Assembly: GCA_048882385.1 (NCBI GenBank)
Contig: JBHLRQ010000074.1
Location: 1 to 16,087 of the forward strand
Direction: 5' to 3'
Source of the DNA: Candidatus Thorarchaeota archaeon
GTDB lineage: Archaea > Asgardarchaeota > Thorarchaeia > Thorarchaeales > Thorarchaeaceae
DNA length: 16,087 bases
The translations under genes were made by a program, and so were the position numbers. A model generated the notes under the pieces. It made no database searches. It was not told where the DNA came from and saw only the letters and a list, made by a program, of their open reading frames with translations. How positions within the stretch are numbered: the first letter of the stretch is position 1; every line of letters begins with the position of its first letter. Shown one piece after another: positions 1-14,892 of this stretch.

Positions 1-639
1 GTTACAGAAGGTGACAGTGAAGGGTATTTTCTGATAGATCACATTAGCCTCAGTCTCTTCCGTGTTGTTATTGGATTTGCTTTCGCGATAATCACAGCTG
101 TCCCAATGGGTATAGCCATTGGAAGATATCGGATATTTGATGCGATACTCAGTCCTGTTGTAGAGGCTATGCGTCCCATCCCTCCAATTGCTTGGATCCC
201 TCTGGCGATTCTAATGTTCTCTCGAAATCTGCTTGGTGCTCAGGTGTTCATCATTTGGGTCGGTGCTTTCTTCCCAATTCTGATAAATACAACAACGGGT
301 GTAAAACGTACGGAACCAGTTCACATAGATGTTGCAAAAACATTTGGTGCTGGAGAGATTCAGATTCTACGTAAGATCGTCATACCATCAGCTGGACCTG
401 AAATCTTTGCAGGTCTGAGAATTGGTTTTGGTATTGGTTGGATGTGTCTTGTCGCCGCTGAAATGATTGGAGGGGGTCTTGGACTGGGATATCTGATTTG
501 GATAATGTGGCAAGTTGGCCGAACAGGTGCAGTAATCATTAGTATGTTTATGATTGGCTTGATTGGTTTTCTAGTAAGCTACTTCTTTCTGTTCATTGAA
601 AAAAGACTGCTCAAATGGAGGCAGACTGTTTCGGTCTAG
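1..639 (+). CDS. ABC transporter permease, nitrate/sulfonate/taurine (SsuC/TauC-like) family, 5'-partial
   Basis: Frame is open from base 1 (VTEGDSEGYFLIDHISLSLFRVVIGF...), upstream of the ATG at 106. Contains RPIPPIAWIPL, an EAA-like loop (DVAKTFGA...ILRKIVIPSA), W.CLVAAEMIG..GLG and several hydrophobic helices. Confidence 0.92.
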   Translation, partial: VTEGDSEGYFLIDHISLSLFRVVIGFAFAIITAVPMGIAIGRYRIFDAILSPVVEAMRPIPPIAWIPLAILMFSRNLLGAQVFIIWVGAFFPILINTTTGVKRTEPVHIDVAKTFGAGEIQILRKIVIPSAGPEIFAGLRIGFGIGWMCLVAAEMIGGGLGLGYLIWIMWQVGRTGAVIISMFMIGLIGFLVSYFFLFIEKRLLKWRQTVSV

Positions 640-1408
640 AACGGCTCATCGCTTTCTCCTGTTCCACCTTGAGGACCTCCAAAATATTACTTCTATAAGC
701 CAAACACTCTGGTGAAGCTCTATTACGAGGCTTTGGGATGTCCACCTCGTATTCTGCAAGAATCTTAGCAGGTATGTTACTTAACACAAGAATACGATCA
801 CCCATGAAGACTGCTTCGTCTACATTGTGTGAAACAAAGATGATTGTTGAACCAGTTGATTCTCTGATTCTGAGTAATTCCTCTTGTAGGTGATTTCTGG
901 TCTGAGCATCAAGATTGGATAGAGCTTCATCAGCAACCAGAATGTCAGGGGACACAACAAGACTTCGCGCCACCTCAGTCTTTCTAGCCTGTCCTCCTGA
1001 GATTTCGTGTGGATAGTTGTCTTCTAGACCATTCATTCCAACAATCCTGATGATTTCCTCTACTCTGGTCTGCATCTCGTTTCGATCTAAGTTTGCGATT
1101 TCAAGTCCAAACTCAATGTTCTGTTTCACAGTTCTCCAAGGAAACAAAGACTCTTGCTGGAAAATGTAGCCAACTCTGTTGTGTCCTGGAAAAACTTCTT
1201 TGCCATCTATCTCGACACGCCCATCTTCCGGCTCAAGCAGTCCTGCAATGATTTTCAATAATGTAGTCTTCCCACATCCACTGGGTCCTAATATACAAAG
1301 TAGCTCTCCTTCTTTAACATCAAAAGAAATATCATCTAGTACCTCTATGAACTCCGATTCACCATTCGGATATGATTTTGAAACATTTTTGACAGAGAGC
1401 TTGGGCAT
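611..1408 (-). CDS. ABC transporter ATP-binding protein, SsuB/TauB-like
   Basis: Walker A GPSGCGKT, Q-loop IFQQESLFPWRTV, signature ISGGQ, Walker B/D-loop LVADEALSNLD, H-loop VSHN, C-terminal IPKPRNR. ATG at 1408 (MPKLSVKNVSK) is preferred over the TTG at 1420. Confidence 0.93.
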   Translation of the reverse strand: MPKLSVKNVSKSYPNGESEFIEVLDDISFDVKEGELLCILGPSGCGKTTLLKIIAGLLEPEDGRVEIDGKEVFPGHNRVGYIFQQESLFPWRTVKQNIEFGLEIANLDRNEMQTRVEEIIRIVGMNGLEDNYPHEISGGQARKTEVARSLVVSPDILVADEALSNLDAQTRNHLQEELLRIRESTGSTIIFVSHNVDEAVFMGDRILVLSNIPAKILAEYEVDIPKPRNRASPECLAYRSNILEVLKVEQEKAMSRSRPKQSASI

Positions 1409-1569
1409 ATTTTTGACCAAGTTGATTGAAAACTCTCAATCTGTTAAATGCTATGCTGCCAACATGCGCGCAAAGTAAAAAAAGGCCCTTGATGCTGTTT
1501 TTAGCTGTATTAGGCGCACGGACCTAGTAGATAATTCCATAGACGCTATGAAGCAGGAAGGTTGCTGAT

Positions 1570-3867
1570 TTGGGTACACCTAAAGTTCTGTTCGAGATTG
1601 AAGATGACGAGAGCACTAGTGCGATTGCAGTGGGAGATGTTACTGGCAATGGTGCCTCTGAGTTATGTACCGGTGGGCGCGATGGTGTCCTTCGACTCTA
1701 TGATGCGAATCGTAGCGAGATCGCTTTTCTTGCACAGCTTGACGTTGGGGGTAGTATTCTATCCATCAAAATTGCAGACGCCAACAATGATGGTCAGATG
1801 GAACTAGTCGTTGGAAGGGCAGTAGGAGTTGGTGAGACTCCTGGTGAGGCTGGAACCGTCCAAGTGTACAGATACGCTCCTAGTGGACAACTCGAGCTTC
1901 TTAGTGAATTTGCAGTAGACCGCTTTGTCACAACTGTCCACGTGACTGATGTCACGGGTGATGAAAAGAATGAGATTCTGGTTGGTGGAAGTGATTCTAC
2001 ACTTCGAATTCTACAGATGGACACTGACAACAACATCACTCAGTTTGTCAATCATCAGTTGGATGACATGCCTATTGCCATTGGTACATGTGATGTGATT
2101 GGTGACGAAATTGAAGAGATAGTTACAGGTAACCGAGACAAAACTCTACGAGTATTCAAGGTCCGTGACCATTCTGTTGAACAAATAGAAGTCATTGAAC
2201 TACCCAGTCCCGTCATCTCAGTGGCTGCTGGTGATATCCTTGGGGATAGGAAGATGGAACTTGGTGTTGTCACTCATGATGGTTCCATACGTGTCTATAG
2301 AAATGAAGAGAGCAAACTTGACTTATTCTCGACTCTTGAGAATGTAAATGCTCTATCTGTTAGAATTGAAGAACTCAATGCAGATCATATGGATGAGGTC
2401 GTCGTAGCCACTTCCGATTACAAAGTAAACTTCTACAGTCTCCAGATGGCGGATCTTAACCAGATTGCATCTGTTGACATTGGAAAGAAGATTCTATCTA
2501 TCAATGTGGGCGATGCGGGAGGCGATGGTCGAAAAGAGGTGCAAGTCGGTATTTCTGAAGCACCATTAAAGGTCATTGAGGGTCTCTACAAGCTAATTCC
2601 AAAATTCGAAGTTAGTCCCGAGATCAAGACTGGAACAGACCTCCGTGGAAAAATCACTGTCTATAATGTCAGTGATGAGCCAGTTACTGGAGTTTCTGGT
2701 AAAATCTATTGGTTCCCCAAAGACCATATGGATGTTGAACCACAACAACTCAGGTTTGACCTAGCTCCTGGTGACTGTCAATCTATAGATGTCCAGTTAA
2801 CACCTCGAGTCGAGGGTACAGTCATCATACGTCCCATTGTTCTGATGTGGACTGACTCCAGAGGTCAGGTCAGACAAGTCACAACCCCTGAAACAGCAGT
2901 CCTTGTACAAGAAGGAGCCGCGATGGCTGCTCCCGCAGCAGTTGCACCAGTTCCAGTTGAACCTACTCCGGTAGAAATTCCTGAGGCTGAGGTCACACCA
3001 TTTGGTTCTGTGGTTGGTACAGGCTTTAAGGACTTGGAAGCTAAAGAAAAAGCAGCTGAGATACTTCAAACAACCATGACTGGTGATGCGAGTGAATCAC
3101 TTAAAGCCGCTGAAGAGCTTTTAGATAAACTCTTTGGCGCAGAAGAAACTGGCGCCGCAATGGCAGAGATTGACGATGTCGAAGCCTTGATGGCTGAACC
3201 AACCCCTGAAGAAACCACTATAGCAGCTGTTGCTGGAGACACAGAGAGTGACCTAGTCGCAGATATTCGAACCAGACGTCCCAAACCTCCCAGACCCGGA
3301 ACAGCACCTGATGCATATCAGTTCCTTTTCAAAACTATGGTGATCGGTGAAGGTGCAGTTGGAAAGACAACTCTTGTAAACCGCTATGTGACAGGAGTCT
3401 TTGAGCGCGACTACAAGACGACAATCGGCTCTCAATTCGCTGTCAAACTGACCCACATCTCACCCCCTGAGGCTGAATATTCTACAGGAATCAAGCTTCA
3501 AGCGTGGGACGTTGCAGGCCAAGCGAGATTCAAGGCAGTGCGGAAGATGTACTATTCTGGAGCCGCAGGCATCATCTTAGTGTTTGACGTGACGAGGCGT
3601 CGTTCTTTCACAGAGCTCTCGAAGTGGGTTGAAGAAGCTGACGAATCCATTGGAACTCGCGTGCCAATGATATGCGTGGGTAACAAGACAGACCTCCCCG
3701 ACAGAGCGGTTCCCTCGGATGAAGCAAAGCGCTGGTCGGAGGACAAAGGTTTTCTCTATATGGAATCATCCGCCAAGACAGGTGAGGGTGTGGCCGACAT
3801 GTTCACGGTTCTTGCGGAAGTCATGTGGAGAGAGGCAAGAAAGGCACAGGAAGGCAAGAAAATTTAG
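1570..3867 (+). CDS. Fusion protein: 7-bladed FG-GAP-type beta-propeller + Ig-like domain + acidic linker + Rab-like small GTPase
   Basis: Seven repeats in aa 1-~338: GDVTGNGASEL, ADANNDGQMEL, TDVTGDEKNEI, CDVIGDEIEEI, GDILGDRKMEL, EELNADHMDEV, GDAGGDGRKEV. Beta-sandwich pattern (ITVYN...LAPGD...VQLTP..EG) at aa ~343-448. Ala/Pro/Glu-rich linker follows. GTPase motifs: G1 GEGAVGKT (3346-3369), G2 YKTTIG, G3 WDVAGQ (3505-3522), G4 NKTD (3682-3693), G5 SAK (3769-3777). TTG start, preceded by purine-rich GCAGGAAGG. Confidence 0.9.
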   Translation: MGTPKVLFEIEDDESTSAIAVGDVTGNGASELCTGGRDGVLRLYDANRSEIAFLAQLDVGGSILSIKIADANNDGQMELVVGRAVGVGETPGEAGTVQVYRYAPSGQLELLSEFAVDRFVTTVHVTDVTGDEKNEILVGGSDSTLRILQMDTDNNITQFVNHQLDDMPIAIGTCDVIGDEIEEIVTGNRDKTLRVFKVRDHSVEQIEVIELPSPVISVAAGDILGDRKMELGVVTHDGSIRVYRNEESKLDLFSTLENVNALSVRIEELNADHMDEVVVATSDYKVNFYSLQMADLNQIASVDIGKKILSINVGDAGGDGRKEVQVGISEAPLKVIEGLYKLIPKFEVSPEIKTGTDLRGKITVYNVSDEPVTGVSGKIYWFPKDHMDVEPQQLRFDLAPGDCQSIDVQLTPRVEGTVIIRPIVLMWTDSRGQVRQVTTPETAVLVQEGAAMAAPAAVAPVPVEPTPVEIPEAEVTPFGSVVGTGFKDLEAKEKAAEILQTTMTGDASESLKAAEELLDKLFGAEETGAAMAEIDDVEALMAEPTPEETTIAAVAGDTESDLVADIRTRRPKPPRPGTAPDAYQFLFKTMVIGEGAVGKTTLVNRYVTGVFERDYKTTIGSQFAVKLTHISPPEAEYSTGIKLQAWDVAGQARFKAVRKMYYSGAAGIILVFDVTRRRSFTELSKWVEEADESIGTRVPMICVGNKTDLPDRAVPSDEAKRWSEDKGFLYMESSAKTGEGVADMFTVLAEVMWREARKAQEGKKI

Positions 3868-3876
3868 GAAAACGCT

Positions 3877-4473
3877 TCACGAAAGAGCTTCTGCGCCTTC
3901 ATTGAATGCAGTCAGATTGTCTTCTGAAACAAGGATCTTTGAAACTGCATCTCTGAGACTCCTAGGTTCAAGTGGTATGCCCTTCAGTGATGAAAGCCCA
4001 CCCACCATGAATGAATTGAGAACTCGGGTTGAACCCAAACGCTTCAAAACTGGTTCCGTATCAAGAAGATGAACCTTTTTGCATAATGACTGAAGTGCTC
4101 TTTCGATATCCTCTATCTTGGGGTAAGACTTGTCACCTGTTGTTACATTTACAGGGGGTACAGGCATCGTGTTTACTAGAGCTACTGTATTCCCACCAGC
4201 ATATTTTGTAGCTGCTCGTAATGCTTCGAGTGGTTCAAAGCCAAGTAGAACATCGAGTTCTCCTTTGGGTATCAAAGGTCCCCAGTCCCTTTTGCCAATC
4301 CTGATATGCGTAAGAACACTACCACCTCTTCGTGAGGCTCCGAATGTGTCCCCAACCACAGGTCGTAATCCCTGTAGAACTGCAGCCTCCGCGATAATCC
4401 GGCCACAGACAAGATTTCCCTGACCTCCAACACCTGCGACCAAAATGGAGAATGGGTCTTTCACATCACTCAC
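3877..4473 (-). CDS. iorB: Indolepyruvate:ferredoxin oxidoreductase beta subunit
   Basis: AGVGGQG, G.SRRGGSV..HIRIG, D.LLGFEPLEALR, N.FMVG, N..AF..G. Overlaps the iorA 3' end by 8 bp. Confidence 0.9.
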   Translation of the reverse strand: MSDVKDPFSILVAGVGGQGNLVCGRIIAEAAVLQGLRPVVGDTFGASRRGGSVLTHIRIGKRDWGPLIPKGELDVLLGFEPLEALRAATKYAGGNTVALVNTMPVPPVNVTTGDKSYPKIEDIERALQSLCKKVHLLDTEPVLKRLGSTRVLNSFMVGGLSSLKGIPLEPRSLRDAVSKILVSEDNLTAFNEGAEALS

Positions 4474-6313
4474 GCTCCACTATTGCTTTGTGCGGACACA
4501 CATCGATGCACGCTCCACATTGTACACATGAATGTTCTATGACTATCGGATGTTCTGTTTCATCACTCCAGCTGAGAGCTGGACATCTGAAATCTGACAC
4601 GCAGATCATACACTTTTCTCCCCTACAGAGATCCTCTTCTATTCTAACTGGAGTGTCACCCACATGCCCAGGTTCCTTTTTCACTTCCTCAAGTCTGCAG
4701 ACACTATCAAGAAGAAGAACCTTCAAGCCCTCTTTCTGTACGGTTGAATGAATTAGTTTTGTAAGGGCTGGAATGTCTGTTGCATCTCCTCTTGCAAAGA
4801 AGTCTGGCTCAATCGATCTTACCAGATTCTCAATCTCCAATCTTCGAAGATTCTCAGGCTGATCGCTTGATCCTGGATGCAATTGAAAGCCCGTCATTGC
4901 TGTGGTAGTATTATCAAGAATGACAAATGCCAGGTCTGAATTCTTGTGTCTTGCATTTATCAAGCCTGGCAAGCATGCATGGTAGAAAGTAGAATCTCCT
5001 GCTACGCTGATAACCTTCGATTCAAATCCGAACCTCTTTAGTTGCCCTAATCCAGAACCGATACCAATTCCTGAGCCCATAGCTTGCATGGTATCCATTG
5101 CTTGATCATAGAAGACTCCTAGAGAATAACAACCGATGTCTCCTGCAACCACAAGTTTTCCACCTAGTCGTTTCTTTACAGTTCGGACCGCCCAGTAGAA
5201 ATTACGATGAGTACATCCAGCACAGAATGTAAGGGGTCTCTCCACGATGAGATCTTTAGGATGTACCGATGACTTCTTTTCGGTTTTGCCTGTTAAATTC
5301 ATGAGCGCGCTCAAGACAACATCCGTGGTCATTTCCCCATAGCTAGGTATGTGTTCTGTTCTTCTCCCAAAGAACTGTGGCTTGTCCTTCAAATTGACTA
5401 CCAGCGACCTAATCTCATCCTCCAAGAATGGATCATTCTCTTCTACAAACAAAACTTGCTTAGTAGCTTCAAGAAGACGAATCAATGTTGACCTTGGCAA
5501 TGGATATGTTGTAACAAGATTCACGTGGTCGATCTTATGTGAGCCAAGTAGGTGGATTGCCTCCTTTGTATACAGCGAGCTTATACCACTTGAAATGACC
5601 AAGAGGTCCCTTTCTTTGGCACTAGAATCACTGTTGAATTGTGAATTCTCAAACTCCTTTCTCACTTTATCCATCTTGTTTAGGAGGTCTCGGTGTCTTA
5701 GATGTGGTGATGGGACATTATAGAGTTGATTCGGGAAGTCTTGTATTCTCTTCTTCTTCTTTGGAATCCTACTTATTTGAACCAGCCCTCTCGAATGCGA
5801 TAGTCTTGTTGTACTCCTGATGAAAACTGGAATCTCGTATTTCTGAGAAAGCTTGAATGCAATCCGGGTGAGATCTTTCGCTTCTTGATATGTTGAAGGC
5901 TCCAGTAGTGGAATCTGTGCTGCTTTCGCATAGAATCTTGAATCTTGTTCGTTACTGGAACTGTGTCCCCTAGGATCATCACACACTACAATAACGAGAC
6001 CCCCCTTACCTGATCCAGATAGGTTCAGGTTCAGTAGAAAGTCTGAAGCAACATTCAGACCCAATGACTTCATAGGACTGAGAGCTGGAATTCCAACCCA
6101 ACTTGCAGCGGCCGCAGATTCAAGAGCAACTTTCTCATTTGTAGACCACTCAACATGAATATCGTGTTCTGCAGCAGATTCAAAGAGCATAGTCGCAATC
6201 TCAGTCGAAGGAGTTCCCGGATAGGATGCGCAGAACCCTACACCTGCTTCTAAAGCACCTGTCGCTATGGCTTCATTACCACTCATGATGATGTTTTGTT
6301 TAGATTCGCTCAT
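4466..6313 (-). CDS. iorA: Indolepyruvate:ferredoxin oxidoreductase alpha subunit
   Basis: GNEAIA.GA, YPGTPSTEI, EWSTNEKVA, DDP..HSS.NEQD, RPLTFCAGCTHR, GDIGCY, TPP-binding GDSTFYH...DN.TTAMTGFQ, and a C-terminal ferredoxin domain (C....C..C...CP and CVQCGACIDVCP). Confidence 0.95.
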   Translation of the reverse strand: MSESKQNIIMSGNEAIATGALEAGVGFCASYPGTPSTEIATMLFESAAEHDIHVEWSTNEKVALESAAAASWVGIPALSPMKSLGLNVASDFLLNLNLSGSGKGGLVIVVCDDPRGHSSSNEQDSRFYAKAAQIPLLEPSTYQEAKDLTRIAFKLSQKYEIPVFIRSTTRLSHSRGLVQISRIPKKKKRIQDFPNQLYNVPSPHLRHRDLLNKMDKVRKEFENSQFNSDSSAKERDLLVISSGISSLYTKEAIHLLGSHKIDHVNLVTTYPLPRSTLIRLLEATKQVLFVEENDPFLEDEIRSLVVNLKDKPQFFGRRTEHIPSYGEMTTDVVLSALMNLTGKTEKKSSVHPKDLIVERPLTFCAGCTHRNFYWAVRTVKKRLGGKLVVAGDIGCYSLGVFYDQAMDTMQAMGSGIGIGSGLGQLKRFGFESKVISVAGDSTFYHACLPGLINARHKNSDLAFVILDNTTTAMTGFQLHPGSSDQPENLRRLEIENLVRSIEPDFFARGDATDIPALTKLIHSTVQKEGLKVLLLDSVCRLEEVKKEPGHVGDTPVRIEEDLCRGEKCMICVSDFRCPALSWSDETEHPIVIEHSCVQCGACIDVCPHKAIVERE

Positions 6314-6369
6314 TCTATCCCTCGCAGAATTTCAACACGTGAGGCATCAGAAAATACTTTCGACGAGTC

Positions 6370-6383
6370 AATTCTATAGAATT
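6370..6383. promoter_or_regulatory. Perfect 14-bp palindrome in the divergent iorA/DHH intergenic region; candidate operator
   Basis: AATTCTATAGAATT is its own reverse complement and lies roughly midway between the two start codons. Confidence 0.35.
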
Positions 6384-6435
6384 AAAGAGTACCTACGGGA
6401 AGATAAAATAAGCGAGCACTCAACCTGTTTTATGA

Positions 6436-7515
6436 ATGTATATGCCTGAAGAACCAGAAAATCCATCAAAGCCTAAAAAAATCACATCTGTTCTATCCAT
6501 ATCTCACGATAAAGATGTAGACGGATTGAACTCTGCAGCGATTGTGTGGAGATATGCAAAAGAAAAGGGTCTTGAGTTCAAGGCATTACTCACTGATTAC
6601 GGTTCATTTGAACAGGTATTCTCTGCCATAGGCAAAAGGCGGGATACACTCATCATTATTACCGACCTAGGTATGGATGATACGATAATTGACGTTGTAC
6701 AGGCTGGATTAACACAAGCAATCTCACAAGGCTGTAGAATTGTGTGGTTGGATCATCACCAATGGTCAGATAGCGCCATCAAGATGGTGCTCTCACTTGG
6801 GAATAAACCCATTCTGAAAGTCAATCATGATTTTTGTGCAGCTGAAATTGCAAGCAAGGTTCTCATGCCACGAGATGAGATTTGCACTGAACTAGCCACT
6901 ATTGCACATGATACTGATTTCAATCTTCGAGAGATTGAAGTAGCCACTGCACTCACTGACGCAGTAAGCGTGACTCGTTTTGGTGCAATCGATAAGAAGG
7001 AAGAAGTCACTGATGCATTATATCCCCTTCTCACCAAATTAGCAGAGAGTGGAATAAGTGGTGTATGGGATATTAGCACTCGCAAGTTCAAGGACACCCT
7101 CCTGCATAAGCGTGTAGAGAATTACCAGAAAGAGAAGTCAAAGAAGATGAGGAAAGCTCTGGCCGGGCATTGTGATCAGGTCATTCATGATAAACTTGTG
7201 CGAATCGTAGAGATTCCCAGTGGTCTGACTTCAACAGACATGGGAACATTTGCATCAAATCAAGAGAATCTCACTAGAATTGACTCTGAACTGAAGGTTG
7301 CTGACCTTCTACTCTCACTCAGTCAAGGTGGAATGTTAGGCTTCAGAAGAGGTAGTGATGGGGTCATGTGTAATGCTGCTGCAAAGTTGTTTAATGGAGG
7401 TGGACATCCATATGCTGCTGGAGGGGAGTACGGTTTGTATGAAGATTTTCAAGCAGTATGTGATGATATCTTTCTTACTCTCTCAAAAGACAAAACTTGG
7501 ATTTCAGATACCTAG
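6436..7515 (+). CDS. DHH/DHHA1 family phosphoesterase (nanoRNase/RecJ-like superfamily)
   Basis: Motif I HDKDVDG, motif II ITDLG, motif III WLDHH, CAAEI, motif IV AHDTD, and DHHA1 GGGHPYAAG. The start may be the ATG at 6442. Confidence 0.88.
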   Translation: MYMPEEPENPSKPKKITSVLSISHDKDVDGLNSAAIVWRYAKEKGLEFKALLTDYGSFEQVFSAIGKRRDTLIIITDLGMDDTIIDVVQAGLTQAISQGCRIVWLDHHQWSDSAIKMVLSLGNKPILKVNHDFCAAEIASKVLMPRDEICTELATIAHDTDFNLREIEVATALTDAVSVTRFGAIDKKEEVTDALYPLLTKLAESGISGVWDISTRKFKDTLLHKRVENYQKEKSKKMRKALAGHCDQVIHDKLVRIVEIPSGLTSTDMGTFASNQENLTRIDSELKVADLLLSLSQGGMLGFRRGSDGVMCNAAAKLFNGGGHPYAAGGEYGLYEDFQAVCDDIFLTLSKDKTWISDT

Positions 7516-8489
7516 GACTTCTGTTCACGTAACATTTTATTCACAAGTTCAAGAACATCAATCCCTGTTTCCCAGAGTTCATCAAAGGTTCTAATGGCGT
7601 CATTTATCAATCCTGGATTATCCTCTCTGTGGACCAGTGCTGCCATATCTGACTCCTTTGCATGAGTCAAATAGAGTAGCATTTTGTCTTCATTTAGACT
7701 TACTATTCGATACGTATTCATCGGTTCACGCGATAATTTGAGCTGAATGTTACCAGATTTTGTAGCTTGCTCAAAGGCATCTATCATCGGTGTGAGGTGG
7801 CTTGTCATCAAGTTCAAATCCAGTTCGGTGGTCCCGACTGGAGTAAGTAAACCCCTGACTTTCACACCTCTAATGCCTGACTGGATGATCCTCAGTTCTG
7901 TAACACCACCTGGTCCAAGTCCTTCTGCCAAGGTGCTTGCATGACCTAGTATCCTCACAACATCGCCAGCTTTTGCACCATCTGCAAATTCTCGTATGAT
8001 TGTACTTCTAACGTTCTCAACTCCTTCAATCACACCCGATTTTCCAATTGATGAACTGCCTACCAATTGTTTGTGGAGTACAAGAGCCAGCTCCGAACCG
8101 CTGACTGATTTGAGTTGATTGAGTTTAGAGGTAAGATGTTGCTTCTCTGTGTTGGTGTTAGTTATCCTGTCTTGTTTACTTGCTACAAGTGCTTCAGTAA
8201 TACCTGATTTTTTGACAACGTAAGTTCTCGGAGTACTGATGGCATCCACGATAGAAATGAGCTTGCTATCTAGTAGGTCATTTAGTCTTCTATAGATATA
8301 GGCTCTTGTGAAAGGTTGTTTACCAGTTATCAATTCTAGACATTTAGAAATCTCATCATATTTGACAGGTCTGTCAAGACCTCCCGCAGCCTTGAGAACT
8401 GCTCGAAATACCTGCATCTGACCCGAGTTCATATCAAAACCAAGTTTCTCGAGTTCTTGTAGGAAAATCTTACTGGACAATCCGGTCAT
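7512..8489 (-). CDS. Putative TrmB-like regulator (wHTH + coiled coil + PLD-like-fold sensor domain), paralog 3
   Basis: wHTH-like segment (VKYDEI...TRAYIYRRLNDLLDSKLI...TPRTY), heptad segment, IEGVENV, GDVVRI, RGVKVRGL, C-terminal NPGLINDAIRTFDELW. ATGA overlap with paralog 2. Confidence 0.65.
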   Translation of the reverse strand: MTGLSSKIFLQELEKLGFDMNSGQMQVFRAVLKAAGGLDRPVKYDEISKCLELITGKQPFTRAYIYRRLNDLLDSKLISIVDAISTPRTYVVKKSGITEALVASKQDRITNTNTEKQHLTSKLNQLKSVSGSELALVLHKQLVGSSSIGKSGVIEGVENVRSTIIREFADGAKAGDVVRILGHASTLAEGLGPGGVTELRIIQSGIRGVKVRGLLTPVGTTELDLNLMTSHLTPMIDAFEQATKSGNIQLKLSREPMNTYRIVSLNEDKMLLYLTHAKESDMAALVHREDNPGLINDAIRTFDELWETGIDVLELVNKMLREQKS

Positions 8490-9403
8490 CCCTCATAGTC
8501 TACTATATCAATTCCAATCTCATAGTCTCTATCAAAACTATCAATTGCACTGTCAACAAGTTCCGGATTAGAACTTCTTGGAATCCAGGTCACTGAGAAT
8601 GGACTCTCAGATACTACCAGTACAATCCCATCTTTGTTTCGTCCAACAAACTGGTATGTTGCATCCTTCCTGGGTAGAACTTTGTATCCTGCTTTGTACC
8701 CTTTCTTACGCCAACCAGGGATGATTTTTCTGAAATTGTCACGAATAACTTTCTCTCCTCTATCATGGTCAAGTGACCGAAAATCAACCCCTCTTGCAAG
8801 CATCTTTACTGTATCATTAAGGGTGTTATCACTCATGTAATCATGTTGAGTGACCCATTCAAGTGTGATTCTTATCACATCCCCCTCGCTGAGTCCACTG
8901 TACACTTTGTCTTTAATCATTTTCATGAAGTCTTCCCAACCCTGAGCGAAGGTGGGTTTTTCGATTTTTCTCTTACCAAGAATGAAATCAACCATCTCTT
9001 CTGCCATAGAATTAACATTGATCTCCGAGAGAGCCGCTTCTTCAGAGCTAATATTCTTCAATTCCCTTTCCAGACCTTTGATAGTTTGAGTCAACCTCTT
9101 CTTCAAAGCTCTCTCAATAATTGCGATGCTTGAATTGTATCCGTGTTTTTGCTGGCTCTTATCAATCCGCAAAAATCCCTCTTTCTCGAGCCACGAAAGA
9201 CTTCGATAAACCAAGGAATCTTTCCCTTTTCTGCCACCTTCATCTTTGGCTAGCTGCTCACGAATGGATTCAAAATCAATGAAATCAGAGGGTTCTTTCT
9301 GAGCCTTCAGCAAAGCCCCTAGTACGACCATGTCTTTCTTGGACCTCTCCAACTCCATCATCTGAAGAATTTCTTCATGCTTGACCTCAATAGTCACCCT
9401 CAA
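8486..9403 (-). CDS. Putative TrmB-like regulator, paralog 2
   Basis: wHTH-like segment (IDFESI...DSLVYRSLSWLEKEGFL), coiled coil, AQGWEDF, GDVIRI, RGVDFRSL, NPELVDSAIDSFDRDY. Start codon uncertain (TTG 9403 or GTG 9397). Confidence 0.65.
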   Translation of the reverse strand: MRVTIEVKHEEILQMMELERSKKDMVVLGALLKAQKEPSDFIDFESIREQLAKDEGGRKGKDSLVYRSLSWLEKEGFLRIDKSQQKHGYNSSIAIIERALKKRLTQTIKGLERELKNISSEEAALSEINVNSMAEEMVDFILGKRKIEKPTFAQGWEDFMKMIKDKVYSGLSEGDVIRITLEWVTQHDYMSDNTLNDTVKMLARGVDFRSLDHDRGEKVIRDNFRKIIPGWRKKGYKAGYKVLPRKDATYQFVGRNKDGIVLVVSESPFSVTWIPRSSNPELVDSAIDSFDRDYEIGIDIVDYEG

Positions 9404-9419
9404 TCCCCCAGTTATCGAA

Positions 9420-10451
9420 TTATTTCACACCACCTTTACTGAAAATCTTTCTGATTAAGCCACCGGGTTCAGCCCCAAATGCTTGCATATCTTCAGGATT
9501 CATATCCAACAAAGATTTAGCATTCTTCCAAGCCTTGTCAAAGGCTTCTACAGCATTATCTATCAAATCCGGATTGAAATCTCGAGTGATCCATGTAGCT
9601 GTCAGAGGTTCTTCAGTGATTATCAAAGCCATGTTATCCTTGTTTAGACTCACTTGGAAGTAAGTCTTTGGACCTGCGTAGATTCGAAAATCAAGCTTGA
9701 TCCCTTGTTTTTTCAGCTGCATCAAATTTTGAATCATTGCCGCCGCTCTATCTTCATCGAATTCGATATCAGTCAATTCTTCTATTCTGAAAACCTCAAG
9801 TGGCATCATATAGCGAACATCAGCTCCCCTCATGGCTGCTTCGATGAATCTCTGTGTCCTGTCCATGACTCCCTCGTCCATGAAAGGAGCCATCCAAAGC
9901 AAGGTTGCTCGAATTGTATCCCCCTTTTTTGCCACATCCAACATATTGTATTTCAGTACCCTGTGAAGTTGGTCAACACCGCGCACAATTCGAGAGCTGA
10001 TTTTTTGTTGAGTCCCAGTAATATCTTTGACAAAGTGTTGAGCAATCTGTCCACAATCGAGTTTTTTGACCTCCTCAAGAGTTTTCTCGGTTTCTCCCTT
10101 CTGAGATTCAAGTTCTCCTATACGTTGACTCTTTAATTGTTCAAGTCCCGCCATGACTGTGTTAACATCTGCAATGTACCTCTTACGGTGAGCTGCTGGA
10201 TTATCAACACGAATCAGCTGAACTTCCACCAGGGATTTGAGGACTCGATGGACCCACGCTTTTGTTAGTTTAGCCTCAGGTTCTTCCTTCAGCATCTGGT
10301 CATATATCTCACCAAAAGTAAGAGGAATGGGCGGATCTGTTTGGAGTTTTAGGATGATGTTCAACAGACTCATCAGACGCGACTCCTGTCTATCTCCTGT
10401 TATGAACCCACACAGTTCTAGAGCCTTTGAAACATCGATTTCTTCAGACAT
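9420..10451 (-). CDS. Putative TrmB-like regulator, paralog 1
   Basis: wHTH-like segment (LTFGEI...TKAWVHRVLKSLVEVQLI...HRKRY), coiled coil, VRGVDQL, GDTIRA, RGADVRYM, NPDLIDNAVEAFDKAW. Confidence 0.68.
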   Translation of the reverse strand: MSEEIDVSKALELCGFITGDRQESRLMSLLNIILKLQTDPPIPLTFGEIYDQMLKEEPEAKLTKAWVHRVLKSLVEVQLIRVDNPAAHRKRYIADVNTVMAGLEQLKSQRIGELESQKGETEKTLEEVKKLDCGQIAQHFVKDITGTQQKISSRIVRGVDQLHRVLKYNMLDVAKKGDTIRATLLWMAPFMDEGVMDRTQRFIEAAMRGADVRYMMPLEVFRIEELTDIEFDEDRAAAMIQNLMQLKKQGIKLDFRIYAGPKTYFQVSLNKDNMALIITEEPLTATWITRDFNPDLIDNAVEAFDKAWKNAKSLLDMNPEDMQAFGAEPGGLIRKIFSKGGVK

Positions 10452-10464
10452 CGTACCACTTCCT

Positions 10465-10480
10465 TACTCATCCATGAGTA
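10465..10480. promoter_or_regulatory. Inverted repeat TACTCAT-CC-ATGAGTA; candidate autoregulatory operator of the TrmB-like operon
   Basis: Perfect 7-2-7 inverted repeat separated from the 10451 start codon by 13 bp. It fits TACT-N7-GAGTA and is flanked by GTACC (10453-10457) and GGTAC (10482-10486). Confidence 0.55.
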
Positions 10481-10531
10481 CGGTACAAAATTCATCATCT
10501 TACTAACTTGATGACTGTATACAACCACGCG

Positions 10532-10557
10532 ATATATATATGCTCATTGCTATATAC
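10532..10557. promoter_or_regulatory. Two TATA-box-like elements; candidate archaeal promoters for the regulator operon (-) and the putative ncRNA (+)
   Basis: ATATATATAT at 10532-10541 and TATATAC at 10551-10557. On the minus strand the latter reads GATAAAG-TATATA, with a purine-rich BRE-like flank. Confidence 0.5.
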
Positions 10558-10562
10558 TTTAT

Positions 10563-10710
10563 CTAGCAGCTGACCGCTGCTAAGCTCCGGGTGGATGTCC
10601 ATTAAGGTAATTCCACGCGCATGTTACAGGGCATGCCGGTAAAACGCCGGTCCACGAAGCTGGGCGCAGGGGGGTGTCCCAGCTTCTCCCCTCTCTCTCA
10701 CGATTTTTTT
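10563..10710 (+). ncRNA. Candidate structured non-coding RNA of unrecognised family (~145 nt)
   Basis: 78/130 GC (60%) over 10561-10690 against an AT-richer background. Five consecutive potential hairpins, G-U pairs that favour the + strand, a TATA element about 22 nt upstream and a T7 tract at the end. Confidence 0.55.
10704..10710 (+). terminator. Oligo-T tract; candidate archaeal terminator of the putative ncRNA
   Basis: TTTTTTT after a pyrimidine-rich run (CTTCTCCCCTCTCTCTC) and a 9-bp hairpin. Confidence 0.4.
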
Positions 10711-11938
10711 AAAGTCCGCTCACAGCGATTGCTCGAAGATATCCAACACCGATTTTCATCACCATTGGAAGGAAGTCTGTCATCAACGACATGTATGTTG
10801 AAACCCCAGCTGAGCCCTGTATTAGTTCATTCAAAGTTTGCGCGTCAAGCTGATCCAACACAATCTCTGCCGCGGCAATTGGATCGTTGAACATGGAGTA
10901 CTTGGAAACAGCCCACATCCCTTTCCCGGTATTGGTGATGTTAGAAGCGAGTTTTGACTTGCGATACTCTTTCTCATAGAGTCCAACGCTCTTCTTTGAG
11001 TAGTCCCCAGAATCTGCCATTCTCTTGGCATGTTTCGCAAGCATCTGACCTGCATGGAAACATGTCGTAACGCCTCCACCCACAATTGAAGAGACCTGTC
11101 CGGCTGCGTTTCCGCAGAGTGCAACACCTGAGTCTGTGAACTTTGGAATGATTCCGGCGCAGGGTACGACTCCTCCATTTACAGAAGCAATCTTTGCGTT
11201 CTGTGTTTCAGGGTGTGTCTTCATGTATTTCTTCAGAACATCCTGCATAGGAGGTAGCTTGTGCCAATTAGTCTTGGATGATGGAACTCTCCCAATTCCG
11301 AGATTTACCTCAGTTTCAGACCTTGGATAGAGCCACAGATATCCGAGGCCGACATCCTTTCCGACAAAGAAATACGCCACATCTGGATCTACATTCTTAC
11401 AGTTTTCAAGCTTGAATCTATAACCATAACTCAGAAGCCATTTGGGATGGGTAAAACCTGCAGTTTCTGAAACCCTACTGAACGAACCATCCGCACCAAC
11501 GACCAGATTTGCTCGAACCTCACTGCCCTGATTATACCTCACTCCCACTACCGACTTGTCATTCTTAATAACCGAACCAACTCTTGCCTTGTATTTGATC
11601 TCTGCACCGTCTGATAGTGCGCGGTCTCTCATTAACTCCTGGCATTTATCCTCATCGAAGAGGTATGAGTTTCCAAGGAGTGTTCTATCAACAACTATGT
11701 TTGCACCAGTGTCAAGACTCTCTCCCACAATTGAGCGATACTTATTGCCAATATATTCAGAATCTGGCTTTACTCTAAGAAACCTTAGTGCCTTGTCTGT
11801 GACCAATTCTCCCATCAATGAGTCAGTCACTTTTTCGCGCTTCTCTAAGACAAGAGTCTTCAAACCATACTTTGCACATTGCTCAGCTGTCATGAGTCCA
11901 GCAGGACCAGTTCCAGCAATTATTACGTCTGAGGTCAT
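10709..11938 (-). CDS. Geranylgeranyl reductase family FAD-dependent oxidoreductase (divergent)
   Basis: DVIIAGTGPAG Rossmann motif, VVGADG..SRV, GYLWLYP..ETEVNLGIG (YxWxFP-like), GGVVP, GNAAGQV...GGGV. Confidence 0.85.
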   Translation of the reverse strand: MTSDVIIAGTGPAGLMTAEQCAKYGLKTLVLEKREKVTDSLMGELVTDKALRFLRVKPDSEYIGNKYRSIVGESLDTGANIVVDRTLLGNSYLFDEDKCQELMRDRALSDGAEIKYKARVGSVIKNDKSVVGVRYNQGSEVRANLVVGADGSFSRVSETAGFTHPKWLLSYGYRFKLENCKNVDPDVAYFFVGKDVGLGYLWLYPRSETEVNLGIGRVPSSKTNWHKLPPMQDVLKKYMKTHPETQNAKIASVNGGVVPCAGIIPKFTDSGVALCGNAAGQVSSIVGGGVTTCFHAGQMLAKHAKRMADSGDYSKKSVGLYEKEYRKSKLASNITNTGKGMWAVSKYSMFNDPIAAAEIVLDQLDAQTLNELIQGSAGVSTYMSLMTDFLPMVMKIGVGYLRAIAVSGL

Positions 11939-12074
11939 CTAAGGCACTCTCTGAATCAAGTAGCAACTCGTTTCTGATTCCTCTATATCTGTTTCTCTAG
12001 GATACTTCTTGATAAGTAAATTTCAAATCTATGATTGGAAATACCTTTCAGAACATTAACTGGAGCTAATATGC

Positions 12075-12923
12075 TTGAAACGACGAACCCTCTTGTACGG
12101 CTTTTACATGGTGATATCTATCATCTTTAGTCTGACTGTTTCAACGCTTCCGGCCGTGATATTCTTCTTCTGGTTCTTCCAGAATTTGGATCCACTGATT
12201 TTGAGTATTGGCTGGCCTTTTGTTGATATCCACAGTTTTTTCTTTACACAATTTTCTGGCTCATTTCCGATGTTCGTTTTCGACCACTTCTATTTTCTTG
12301 TTTTGCTGGTACCAATACTCTTGATCAGCTATGGCTTCTTTATTGGTTTCCTAATTGCCATGCTTAGATTCACACGCCGGGGAATACCTTACCTTGAAGA
12401 TGGACTCTATTATGAAGAAACAGAAGATTGGCTACTCTACGAGTTCCATCAGATATACTACACCTTCCTTCCTCACTTTATCTGGTTCCTAGCATTCTTT
12501 CTTGATAGTAAATACAGGCACGTTTGGTTTGGAGCTAATATTGGAAAACGTACAATCCTTGGAGGAGCTCAGGTCATGACCCCTGATAGAATTACGATTG
12601 GGGATGATTGTATGATTGGGTTTGGTTCTATTGTCACAGGTCATGTTTACCAAGACAAGACATTATACCTGAAAAAAATCAAGATTGGGAATAATGTGAC
12701 CGTTGGTGGGTATGCTATTATTTTTGCTGGAGCTGAAATTGGTGACAACACTATAATTGGAGCAAATACAGTCGTTCCACAAGATCGTGTTGTACCACCA
12801 AATTCTATTTGGGTTCACGGAAAAGCAATACCCCGAAAGGAATTATCCGGAATTGACCCAATTGTCATTGATGGGATGGATGGTGACATAGACCTTGAGA
12901 AAATTCACGAGGATGATGCTTGA
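12075..12923 (+). CDS. Membrane-anchored hexapeptide-repeat (left-handed beta-helix) acyltransferase-like protein
   Basis: Two or more N-terminal hydrophobic helices, then FGANIGKRT, ITIGDDCMIG...GH, IKIGNNVTVG, AEIGDNTIIGANTVV, VPPNSIW. TTG start preceded by GGAG. Confidence 0.85.
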   Translation: MKRRTLLYGFYMVISIIFSLTVSTLPAVIFFFWFFQNLDPLILSIGWPFVDIHSFFFTQFSGSFPMFVFDHFYFLVLLVPILLISYGFFIGFLIAMLRFTRRGIPYLEDGLYYEETEDWLLYEFHQIYYTFLPHFIWFLAFFLDSKYRHVWFGANIGKRTILGGAQVMTPDRITIGDDCMIGFGSIVTGHVYQDKTLYLKKIKIGNNVTVGGYAIIFAGAEIGDNTIIGANTVVPQDRVVPPNSIWVHGKAIPRKELSGIDPIVIDGMDGDIDLEKIHEDDA

Positions 12924-12958
12924 GAAAAACTCATGACAATCCCTTCTACGAATCTTGA

Positions 12959-13366
12959 TTGAGAGTGGTTTCGATTCGGTTATTAATGCTACATGTGGAA
13001 AGCTTTTGGTATAGTCCCAATGAGTCTGCTTCAGATGACAGAACAGAGATTGGTGAGTCCCTTCATGTGTGGATTCATTCTGAAGAACATGATGAGGAAA
13101 ACAGAACAAGCGTTCTAAGAAAAATGGTGAAGAACATACGCTGGCTTGCTCAGAAGAATGATTGCGATGCTATCACACTTCATTCATTTGCCCACCTTGG
13201 TGATAGCAAATCCGATTCTAAGTTCGCAGATTTATTGATTGAAGAGGCTGCTGATAGATTGAGGGAGCGCGGATTCGAAATTCATGTTGTGCCATTCGGA
13301 GCATTCTATGAGTTCAATCTACATGTTAAAGGACCATCATTAGCTAAAGTCTTCAAACAGATTTGA
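12959..13366 (+). CDS. Stand-alone archaeal-type threonyl-tRNA synthetase editing domain protein
   Basis: IRLLMLH...Y, E.HDE, LHSFAHL...S, VPFG.F.EFNLHVKG.SLAK match the archaeal ThrRS N-terminal editing (DTD-like) fold. No catalytic domain follows. Start codon uncertain. Confidence 0.85.
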   Translation: MRVVSIRLLMLHVESFWYSPNESASDDRTEIGESLHVWIHSEEHDEENRTSVLRKMVKNIRWLAQKNDCDAITLHSFAHLGDSKSDSKFADLLIEEAADRLRERGFEIHVVPFGAFYEFNLHVKGPSLAKVFKQI

Positions 13367-13411
13367 GTAATCAGATGAGTTCTTAACGCCCCAAACAAAC
13401 GAGGATTAGAG

Positions 13412-14842
13412 ATGTCGAAACCCAAGTATACTCCACGAGGCTATCAAACTCACATTCTAGAGAGTGTCAGTGAAAAAAATGGCACACCCTTACTAGTGGA
13501 GCTGGATTGCGGTCTAGGGAAGCGATTTCTAACACACCAACTTGTTACTGAGAAGTTCCCTGAATCCAAATTCATTATTGTTGTTCATTCCTCATCATCT
13601 CTAGCTGAAACCATCGACTACCTAAAAGGAGAATATGGAGGTCTCGAAGACGATCTTGGTGAACTCTCCTCAAGAGTTCCCTCAGGAAGGCGTCCGTATG
13701 TCCTCCGAGAGAAACGAGTTGTTGTTACAACTCCTCAGGTATTGGCTGGTATGTTCAAGAAAGATCCATCACTTCTGGAACCATTTGAAATTGTTCTCAT
13801 CAACGAGGTCGATACTCTTGTTCGTAGATCTGGTGGTCGCACCGCAATTGTCTACCCTTGGCCAACATTACTCATGTTTTTGCATGGAAAATGGCTCATA
13901 GGTATGAGTGGGACTCTCCGGGATGACCATGCAGTTTTCACACAAGAACAAGTTGAGATCAGAAGGGAACTAGATACTCTCCGACAACACTTCCCAGGTG
14001 CTGAAGTACTCACAATGGAGGACCTCTATGATACTGATGTGGAAGACTTCTTAGAACCGACTTTTCTTACTGTTAGTAAAGTAAATGACACTCGAATTCG
14101 ATCAATATCAAAAGTCATTGATGAGTTGATTCGGAATACACGAGGCGACATCATGAGTGAACTTGCTGAGGATGACAACCTCTATCTCGTTGATGGAGAC
14201 GCACGTCGAGTTCATTTAATGATTGAACGACTTCCTATTACTGAAGAGTTGAAAGGTAGATACACCGGACTCTTGATGCTCAGAAAATATGTCTATGCTA
14301 TGCCCCCCAAACAATTCCTCAGGATGTTTCATACTGACTACCTGAAACATTACTTCAATGTGAGCGAGTTACATAGGACACTCCCTACCATTTCCGCCAA
14401 AGTTTCAAGCGTATTGAAAATTGCAATCAAACACAAGAAGACAGTAGTTCTAACTTCCTACCTAGAGATGGTTTCTCAGGTAAAAGAAGTACTATCCAAG
14501 GCTGGTCTTAACGTCCTGACAATCACAGGTAGAACCCGCAATAAAGGAGAAGTCCTTCGAGCATTTCGTGATGACGCTGATATAGAGGTTCTTGCCATGT
14601 CTCCAGTCGGTGAACGTGATCTAGACATCCCTCAAGCTGAGGTCATGATAGTATGTGATTCTATCAACACCAGCAAGACAATGTATCAGAAGTTCAAGCG
14701 TACAAGAGGTGGTCTTGTTGTGCTGCTAGCCTATTCTGGAACATCAGAAGTAAGAAAAGTGGAGCGTTTAATGGCTCGCATCTTGGATCGATATCCATGG
14801 TCTACAGCAGTACTTGAAACCCCGTCTGAGCCTCTGGGATAG
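13412..14842 (+). CDS. SF2 helicase-like protein (Hef/FANCM-like helicase core) with degenerate motifs
   Basis: Q motif PRGYQ, motif I LDCGLGKR, Ib TTPQVL, II INEVD, III MSGT, IV VVLTSY, ITGR, V SPVGERDLDIP, VI QKFKRTRG. No C-terminal nuclease domain. Confidence 0.8.
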   Translation: MSKPKYTPRGYQTHILESVSEKNGTPLLVELDCGLGKRFLTHQLVTEKFPESKFIIVVHSSSSLAETIDYLKGEYGGLEDDLGELSSRVPSGRRPYVLREKRVVVTTPQVLAGMFKKDPSLLEPFEIVLINEVDTLVRRSGGRTAIVYPWPTLLMFLHGKWLIGMSGTLRDDHAVFTQEQVEIRRELDTLRQHFPGAEVLTMEDLYDTDVEDFLEPTFLTVSKVNDTRIRSISKVIDELIRNTRGDIMSELAEDDNLYLVDGDARRVHLMIERLPITEELKGRYTGLLMLRKYVYAMPPKQFLRMFHTDYLKHYFNVSELHRTLPTISAKVSSVLKIAIKHKKTVVLTSYLEMVSQVKEVLSKAGLNVLTITGRTRNKGEVLRAFRDDADIEVLAMSPVGERDLDIPQAEVMIVCDSINTSKTMYQKFKRTRGGLVVLLAYSGTSEVRKVERLMARILDRYPWSTAVLETPSEPLG

Positions 14843-14856
14843 TCATGTCATTATGA

Positions 14857-14862
14857 TTATAA
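14857..14862 (+). promoter_or_regulatory. TATA-like element upstream of acpS
   Basis: TTATAA 30 nt before the TTG at 14893, a spacing compatible with a short-leader archaeal transcript. Confidence 0.3.
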
Positions 14863-14892
14863 GAGCCACACGTTACTCGAGCAAGAAACAAG

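Follow-up and report, generated by a model that had tools for sequence, protein, structure and literature searches.

The BBSome is recruited by ARL6, a separate Arf-like protein, KICSTOR acts with the Rag GTPases, and the seven-bladed propellers RCC1 and Sec12 are regulators of Ran and Sar1. The Asgard archaea are rich in small GTPases, and the targets of these switches are largely unknown. Fusions of Asgard GTPases with longin and roadblock domains are mentioned in the available text of Tran et al. 2024 (PMC10933270), and the word "propeller" is absent from the main text of that paper. Here we describe a gene in which a beta-propeller, an immunoglobulin (Ig)-like sandwich and a Rab-like small GTPase are encoded as one polypeptide. 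The gene lies in a 16,087-nucleotide stretch of DNA (hereafter, the window) from a Candidatus Thorarchaeota archaeon (GenBank assembly GCA_048882385.1, contig JBHLRQ010000074.1, positions 1 to 16,087). A first-pass annotation, made from the letters of the sequence, had described it as a BBSome/ITFG2-like propeller with an Ig/GAE-like domain, fused to a Rab-like GTPase in a possible one-gene coat-GTPase module.

The 765-residue product is a cytoplasmic multidomain small GTPase, composed of a propeller, an Ig-like sandwich, a leash and a complete Rab-like GTPase (Table 1). Seven D-x-x-G/N-D/N-x-x-x-E motifs start at residues 23, 70, 127, 175, 222, 268 and 315, with a spacing of 46-57 residues; in 2000 shuffles of residues 1-345 the same motif occurred 0.94 times on average and 5 times at most. 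In a full-length AlphaFold2 model built on an alignment of 28 orthologs, the first 342 residues form a seven-bladed all-beta propeller of four-stranded blades, with block values of the predicted local distance difference test (pLDDT) mostly at ~80-95, followed by a beta-sandwich at residues 343-448 that reaches a pLDDT of 92.9 when modelled alone on 38 cut orthologs. The pLDDT lies below 50 across residues 448-556, and the linker as a whole (residues 449-580) holds 26 aspartates and glutamates versus 10 lysines and arginines, with a helix at 508-522 predicted at low confidence. The C-terminal domain has all five G motifs: GEGAVGKT at 593, YKTTIG at 615, DVAGQ, which includes the catalytic glutamine, at 647, NKTD at 705, and SAK at 734. 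With an acidic N-terminus and a highest 19-residue hydrophobicity window of 1.5 on the Kyte-Doolittle scale for the whole protein, neither N-terminal charge nor the hydrophobicity scan makes a signal peptide or membrane segment apparent. This, together with the cytoplasmic-type GTPase in the same chain, leads us to reject a reading of the propeller as a secreted adhesin. The blades, the missing signal peptide, the sandwich of ~105 residues, the linker of ~130 residues and the intact small GTPase of the first-pass annotation are thus borne out by motif count, hydrophobicity, AlphaFold2 and G motifs, and both blade strings that it quoted are present in the translation.

Table 1. Coordinates of the fusion gene and its parts in the window
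Feature	Position	Strand	Basis
Whole gene, 765 codons plus stop, TTG start	1570..3867	+	
Seven-bladed FG-GAP-class beta-propeller, residues 1-342	1570..2595	+	Blade motifs, Pfam FG-GAP_3, AlphaFold2, VIA
Ig-like beta-sandwich, residues 343-448	2596..2913	+	AlphaFold2 of the domain alone, generic Ig-fold matches
Acidic, mostly disordered linker, residues 449-580	2914..3309	+	AlphaFold2 pLDDT, composition
Linker motif 1, PFGxVVGTGF, residues 477-486	2998..3027	+	Ortholog conservation
Linker motif 2, SLKAAEELLDxLFG, residues 510-523, predicted helix	3097..3138	+	Conservation, AlphaFold2
Linker motif 3, ESxLVxEIRxRxPKPPRPG, residues 559-577, basic/proline-rich, directly N-terminal to the GTPase	3244..3300	+	Conservation
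Rab-like small GTPase, residues 581-765, without C-terminal Cys	3310..3864	+	Pfam Ras, G1-G5 motifs, PDB matches

The same architecture recurs in many related genomes. A word-indexed protein search returned 169 proteins, and the 120 best, which are those listed, are all 66-100% identical to the query and carry the same set of Pfam families. Most of these 120 are about full-length and a few are shorter, with query coverage down to 77%; where they are named, the name is "GTP-binding protein" of Candidatus Thorarchaeota, with single rows for Promethearchaeota, Sifarchaeia and Lokiarchaeota. Among species-representative genomes, 80 loci were kept, comprising 62 with a full or nearly full open reading frame (ORF), 12 with a GTPase paralog only and 6 contig-end pieces. 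The orthologs start at the same position as the ORF in the window, but with ATG (MGSPK...).

When 400 genomes of the phylum were scanned with residues 1-450 (E <= 1e-20), a match was obtained in 77 of the 85 genomes of the window's family, as a single match in 75 and as a gene split over two contigs in the remaining 2; completeness in the 8 family members that gave none is 52-93%. The one genome of the sister family in the same order also matched, at 46% identity, with its ortholog cut by a contig end. At that threshold the fusion-type match is absent from 312 of the 313 genomes of other Asgard families, and the sole outside match, in genome G143, is a 744-residue protein with a similar propeller and four C-terminal repeats, without a GTPase. 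An exhaustive phmmer search of residues 1-450 against 1.84 billion representatives gave 1771 matches at E <= 1e-3, only 6 of them at E <= 1e-30: two close full-length-type clusters, three fragments and an ortholog of 781 residues (P0124), which is 41-43% identical and keeps the propeller, sandwich, linker and Ras domain. Because there are just six strong phmmer matches, followed by a fall in score from 382 to 114 bits, and because the 400-genome scan agrees, the family is sharply bounded and limited to one Asgard order, that of the window. The first-pass annotation had named a fusion found only in this assembly as grounds against its reading; the fusion instead recurs across the window's family and in its sister family and, judged by this distribution, is a real conserved gene and no assembly artefact. 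Near-universal, single-copy and highly conserved in one Asgard lineage, the gene is probably central there.

Conservation is uneven along the chain. Mean identity to the window protein over 60 orthologs is 76% in the propeller, 66% in the sandwich, 47% in the linker and 85% in the GTPase, a pattern that speaks for strong purifying selection on each of the folded parts. No substitution is seen across 28 orthologs in the switch regions YKTTIGSQFAVK and WDVAGQARF or in the blade-5 loop LGDRKME, and the sandwich motifs GK.Y.FPK and RP.V.MW are likewise invariant among orthologs. Within the linker, F478, T484, G485 and F486 of motif 1 are at least 90% conserved in the 28 orthologs (GTG at least 95% in 61 sequences), and in the same 28 the residues A514, E515, L517, L518, L521 and F522 of motif 2 and E559, S560, R569 and P576 of motif 3 are invariant. 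The proline/basic run that precedes the GTPase is still recognisable in P0124.

The GTPase domain scores 156.6 bits against Pfam Ras (E 5.4e-46, cut-off 21.6) and 106.4 bits against Roc (E 1.4e-30). Its best match among PDB sequences is the Thorarchaeota Rab 7EZB (E 1.8e-43), followed by Rab14, Rab25, Sec4, Rab11, Rab4 and Rab2, and nearly all of the 60 PDB matches listed are named Rab, Sec4 or Ypt, with a few uninformative names. The five RabF-like strings quoted in the first-pass annotation are present in the translation, namely IGSQF at 619, KLQAW at 642, RFKAVR at 653, YYSGA at 661 and LVFDVT at 670, which that annotation set beside a Rab consensus. By its G motifs and its Pfam and PDB matches, the domain can be assigned to the Ras superfamily as Rab-like and not as Arf-like or Rag-like. 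There is no Cys among the last 20 residues, TVLAEVMWREARKAQEGKKI, and the orthologs end in KKxx, again without Cys and so without the geranylgeranylation Cys motif of bona fide eukaryotic Rabs.

The genome that holds the window has 29 Ras-family matches, only one of which is within the gene of the propeller fusion. A tree of 43 GTPase domains was built from 18 stand-alone Ras-type domains and the fused domain of that genome, 12 paralogs and 11 fused domains of other genomes and the fused domain of P0124, leaving out two weak own-genome matches. In this tree all 13 fused domains cluster together (support 99/95), and their cluster is sister (93/87) to a family of stand-alone, 182-residue thorarchaeal Rab-like paralogs that also lack the C-terminal Cys. 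Since the fused domains group together beside these paralogs, the fusion arose once, from thorarchaeal Rab-like stock, before the split of the order's two families.

In the window's genome the locus of the 182-residue Rab-like gene is at 25210-26402 of contig C5 (L085:5210-6402, + strand). The next gene, in 11 of 12 such loci, is a same-strand ORF of 193 residues without a Pfam family, which may encode a regulator or effector of the 182-residue protein, and a NAD kinase gene follows. An 843-residue ORF adjoining this paralog was considered as a conserved partner and rejected, for it occurs at none of the 12 paralog loci and its product looks secreted. Neither RabGAP-TBC (PF00566) nor DENN (PF02141) had a match in the window's genome; the control genomes were silent too, so that absence is not implied.

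The propeller is of the FG-GAP class, which also takes in the BBS and ITFG2 propellers. Taken alone, it scores 76.2 bits against Pfam FG-GAP_3 (PF13517) and 61.5 bits against the BBS7 model; the protein matches Beta-prop_BBS7 (55.6 bits), BBS2_Mid (46.4) and Itfg2 (30.0) above their cut-offs of 27 each, and PHTB1_N below its own. The BBS and ITFG2 matches are blade-sized pieces, not collinear full-length ones: the Beta-prop_BBS7 match falls into 3-4 pieces, with the best one spanning profile positions 159-294 or 189-287 of 299, and the best stretches of BBS2_Mid and Itfg2 cover positions 3-31 of 108 and 70-169 of 330 (19-170 with the propeller alone). No GAE, platform, coiled-coil or C-terminal helical family of the BBS proteins is among the best 25 of the 28 Pfam families with E <= 1.

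Structural comparison places the same proteins at the top. Foldseek against the PDB fills ranks 1-10 with BBS2, BBS9, BBS7 and BBS1 (E 3e-21 to 9e-16, 470-620 alignment columns), below which come ITFG2 (2e-14), integrin alpha (~1e-13 to 3e-14) and WD40 propellers (~1e-13). The long alignments to whole BBS chains have a root-mean-square deviation (rmsd) above 20 Å, and therefore reflect a shared domain order only, with no shared rigid body. As a rigid body, residues 1-344 of the model give VIA Z scores of 31-34.5 to seven-bladed propellers, with BBS2 at 34.5 (rmsd 2.2 Å, 296 residues, 17% identity) and ITFG2 at 34.1 (2.9 Å, 325 residues, 13% identity); unrelated propellers follow within 1-3 units, with Ciao1 at 33.0, LGI1 at 32.6, a RACK1-type propeller at 32.1 and alpha-COP at 31.9.

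The controls give the measure of this likeness. Among 23 non-orthologous FG-GAP phmmer matches scanned with Pfam at E <= 1e-5, 22 match at least one of BBS2_Mid, BBS7, BBS1 and Itfg2, and 4 exceed the propeller's own BBS7 score, one of them at 103.7 bits and with a CARDB domain too; other controls carry DUF11, dockerin, CHAT/TPR or STAND NTPase modules. In a second set of all 64 phmmer matches of up to 1000 residues, which includes most of the 23 and is thus not independent, FG-GAP_3 is matched in 64, BBS2_Mid in 51, BBS7 in 43 and Itfg2 in 41, and neither a BBS accessory domain nor Ras is among the best 25 of the 41 Pfam families. Outside the family, the closest relatives by sequence are long FG-GAP/VCBS proteins of prokaryotes (25-35% identity, 57-114 bits in phmmer). 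An ESM Atlas feature search likewise puts clusters of bacterial FG-GAP/VCBS proteins (0.85-0.87) ahead of the BBS2/BBS1 clusters (0.81-0.84), all scores being below 0.9, the level under which matches count as leads only.

BBS2 and ITFG2 are thus the solved structures nearest to the propeller, with no specific affinity apparent, because the likeness is common to unrelated prokaryotic FG-GAP proteins and WD40 propellers come within 1-3 Z units. The BBS/ITFG2-like character claimed in the first-pass annotation holds as far as Pfam matches above cut-off and leading Foldseek ranks go, and fails as a likeness above that of unrelated propellers. The resemblance to BBSome and ITFG2 propellers is measurable, but it is no proof of ancestry. 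More generally, the labels "BBS7", "BBS2" and "ITFG2" that Pfam and Foldseek attach to prokaryotic propellers denote the FG-GAP class and are not evidence of ciliary or KICSTOR ancestry.

A stand-alone FG-GAP-class propeller of 336 residues, 27% identical to the fused one and scoring 36 bits against Pfam BBS7, is encoded elsewhere in the window's genome (G000, contig C21:31721-32728, - strand; L002:1180-2190, - strand). It is present in 82 of 85 genomes in the window's family, in the single sister-family genome and in 0 of the 313 of other families, the same pattern as that of the fusion, and it is a candidate partner of the fusion protein. The outside match in G143 (L083:1580-3814, - strand) scores 44 bits against Pfam BBS7, and its four C-terminal repeats end in ...SRSAPRGY... 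Two genes away lies a gelsolin-repeat protein gene (L083:5112-6176, + strand; Pfam Gelsolin E 2e-19), with an ORF that looks TFIIB-like by eye between the two.

The sandwich is harder to place. Its Pfam matches in 38 orthologs are all sub-threshold: ASH (PF15780) in 37, with a best E of 3.2e-5 and 20.8 bits for the window copy against a cut-off of 27, Transglut_C in 18, fn3_6 in 18 and BatD in 11, with no match to the GAE family in any of them. A profile search against PDB sequences gave a best E of 0.46. By structure, Foldseek ranks TRAP-beta first, with its luminal Ig domain (E 2e-6, template modelling (TM) score 0.83), and the other matches include MSP domains (E 1e-4 to 1e-3, TM ~0.4-0.55), the ASH domain of OCRL (4e-4, TM 0.41), complement MG domains, CARDB (5.6e-4) and BBS9 (5.9e-4). 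The exhaustive VIA comparison returned 101 chains at Z >= 8, among them bacterial alpha-2-macroglobulin (12.3), complement C3 (12.2), transglutaminase (11.2), the GAE domain of BBS9 (10.8, 19% identity), CARDB (10.3), TRAPPII (9.6), the ASH domain of CEP192 (9.4), the alpha-adaptin ear (9.1) and the GAE domain of GGA2 (8.9). The domain is a generic Ig fold, to which GAE domains stand no closer than those of CARDB or macroglobulin type. The Ig-like part of the first-pass assignment is upheld; GAE is not singled out, with BBS9 standing between macroglobulin and CARDB in Z score, and neither is CARDB, the alternative that the annotation had put forward. Prokaryotic FG-GAP proteins and integrin alpha heads, besides, usually have an Ig domain after the propeller.

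As to function, we give an even chance to the protein being a self-contained switch and binding platform. The propeller-Ig module would serve as a protein-binding surface, the leash would keep the tethered GTPase at high local concentration, and the nucleotide state of the GTPase would alter what the surface binds, either because the GTPase docks onto the platform or a linker motif (autoinhibition followed by release) or because GTPase and platform jointly bind one client. The invariant residues of switches I and II and the invariant blade loops point to partners that are probably conserved as well. Gating of the platform by the GTPase is what we infer. Several observations weigh against this proposal. 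The contact between GTPase and platform is hypothetical: the full-length model has low confidence in the GTPase (block pLDDT 27-82) and a predicted TM score of 0.58, and is therefore uninformative on its docking. The analyses made identified no partner, guanine nucleotide exchange factor (GEF), GTPase-activating protein or membrane link. P0124, the most distant ortholog, has no recognisable copy of linker motifs 1 and 2, which may therefore be dispensable for the core mechanism, and the conserved gene order around the locus, described below, could merely reflect close kinship of the genomes. A complex prediction for residues 1-450 and 575-765 with GTP and Mg scored 0.00 in both runs and, made without controls, speaks neither way.

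Other readings of the same architecture start from one or another of its parts. The permanent joining of a complete GTPase to a highly conserved propeller would suit a built-in regulator, the propeller being, alone or with a linker motif, a cis exchange factor or activator of the tethered GTPase, as with the propeller GEFs that exist in eukaryotes; we consider this very unlikely, given that RCC1 and Sec12 are not among the best 50 Foldseek or VIA rows (which is not an exclusion), that no catalytic motif speaks for it and that the propeller-GTPase contact it invokes is hypothetical. The Roc match invites comparison with ROCO proteins, in a sensor-output arrangement. The propeller and Ig domain would detect a ligand, for instance a peptide, a glycan or Ca2+ at the DxNxDGxxE-type loop in blade 2, and the GTPase would pass the signal on to downstream partners. 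Blade 2 reads DANNDGQME, which we take to fit the integrin-type Ca2+ loop consensus, with D70, N73, D74, G75 and E78 invariant in 28 orthologs, and related FG-GAP propellers are fused to STAND NTPase and CHAT/TPR signalling modules. Nonetheless, the full Ca2+ consensus occurs in one blade only, Pfam matched no COR or other output domain and no ligand is known, which leaves this sensor function unlikely.

The coat module of the first-pass annotation would have the propeller and sandwich be specific homologs of BBS2/7/9 or ITFG2, in a one-gene coat or adaptor recruited to membranes by its own GTPase. The leading Foldseek ranks of the BBS chains and then ITFG2, their nominal lead in VIA, the Pfam matches above cut-off, the BBS9 GAE score of the Ig model, the BBS2 and BBS1 clusters among the ESM Atlas matches and the co-distributed stand-alone propeller all favour it. 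We nevertheless hold it to be quite improbable: the BBS and Itfg2 models match the controls too, some more strongly, WD40 propellers score nearly as high, bacterial clusters rank slightly above those of BBS in the Atlas, the long Foldseek alignments do not superpose, Pfam matches none of the coiled-coil, platform or C-terminal helical BBS domains, a lipid anchor is missing and the GTPase is neither Arf-like nor Rag-like. This last point also weakens the Rosetta-stone step, by which the annotation had linked scaffold and GTPase to the BBSome and KICSTOR, since the fused domain is Rab-like, as against the Arf-like ARL6 and the Rag GTPases of those two systems. Highly improbable, in our estimate, is the extension by which the fusion and the 336-residue propeller together make up a primitive GTPase-controlled adaptor or coat, sharing ancestry with the propeller-Ig core of BBS2/7/9 and with ITFG2; if true, the scaffold class behind ciliary and lysosomal GTPase-linked complexes would have in it a relative that survives in archaea.

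The surroundings of the gene are well conserved. Upstream lie genes for an ABC permease (kept in 55 of 62 loci) and, divergently, an ABC ATPase (57 of 62); downstream come convergent genes for subunits of a 2-oxoacid:ferredoxin oxidoreductase (57 and 55 of 62 loci) and then for a DHH protein. The oxidoreductase directly downstream of the fusion gene in the window's family is of the indolepyruvate type, and in the sister family (genome G311, L084:1918-4943, + strand) the cut ortholog also stands, by eye, near 2-oxoacid:ferredoxin oxidoreductase-like genes. An operon or a functional link with these neighbours was considered and rejected, the flanking genes being on the opposite strand and metabolic or housekeeping in nature. 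Because such neighbours sit on other strands, the gene looks to be its own monocistronic unit. A look for RNA runs that contain it turned up none, which bears in neither direction on its expression.

Elsewhere in the window, positions 7512-10451 (- strand) hold three tandem ORFs of 325, 305 and 343 residues without a Pfam family. A C-terminal motif that the three have in common, as judged by eye, makes them look like paralogs, and they are kept downstream of the fusion gene in 42 of 62 loci. Positions 12959-13366 (+ strand) encode a stand-alone protein of 135 residues with a match to the editing domain that is specific to archaeal threonyl-tRNA synthetase (PF08915, E 7.7e-32); its 3' neighbour is helicase-like (Helicase_C, ResIII).

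No published description of the propeller-Ig-GTPase architecture was found in the full-text literature on Asgard and Thorarchaeota propellers and GTPases, a coverage outside which most subscription journals fall. According to the part of Liu et al. (bioRxiv 2020.10.19.343400) available to us, most multidomain architectures among eukaryotic signature proteins (ESPs) are lineage-specific products of domain shuffling. The fusion fits this pattern as stated there, and the supplementary tables of that work might list the family. A Rab-like switch covalently joined to a candidate effector platform would constitute a single-polypeptide system for the coupling of nucleotide state to protein binding.

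Set beside known systems, the window protein shares a part of its layout with each of them. ROCO proteins (Roc-COR, e.g. LRRK2 with its WD40 propeller) also combine a Ras-like GTPase and a propeller in one chain, but they have COR after Roc and another domain order and propeller class, whereas the GTPase of the window protein is C-terminal and no COR family is listed for it. Prokaryotic FG-GAP/VCBS proteins with CARDB, DUF11 or FixG_C domains have the blade motif and often the propeller-then-Ig order in common with it; they are mostly long and multi-propeller, with extracellular modules, and the window protein has one propeller, no signal peptide and a GTPase. Integrin alpha heads (Foldseek E ~1e-13) show the same propeller-then-Ig order. 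ITFG2 of KICSTOR (PDB 9V6E, 9O5A) is also a cytoplasmic seven-bladed FG-GAP-like propeller and, unlike the window protein, a propeller only.

The BBSome subunits BBS2, BBS7, BBS9 and BBS1 (PDB 6VBU, 6VOA, 4YD8, 4V0M) resemble the window protein in having a cytoplasmic seven-bladed FG-GAP-like propeller and, later in the chain, an Ig-like (GAE) domain. They differ from it in their coiled-coil, platform and C-terminal helical domains, in place of which the window protein has its Ig domain directly after the propeller, and in being without the GTPase that is fused to it. Among archaeal proteins, a Lokiarchaeial structural cluster described as a "BBS7/ITFG2 beta-propeller" (A0A842VYQ8) is listed among BBS7/ITFG2-like ESPs in the available part of a recent preprint (bioRxiv 10.64898/2026.10.28.762692, PMC13734099); as given there, its 13 Asgard members are 8 Lokiarchaeia and 5 unresolved at phylum level, none of them Thorarchaeia, and no GTPase is named. 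The closest relatives of the other end of the chain are Thor-Rab (PDB 7EZB/7EZD/7EZE; Tran et al. 2024), of which 7EZB is the best PDB sequence match given above, and the 182-residue paralog, which has YKTTIGSQFAVK, WDVAGQ, FDVTRRR and NKTDLPDR in common with the fused GTPase and, like it, no C-terminal Cys. Both Thor-Rab and this paralog are single-domain proteins, to which architecture the window protein adds 580 N-terminal residues of propeller, Ig domain and linker.

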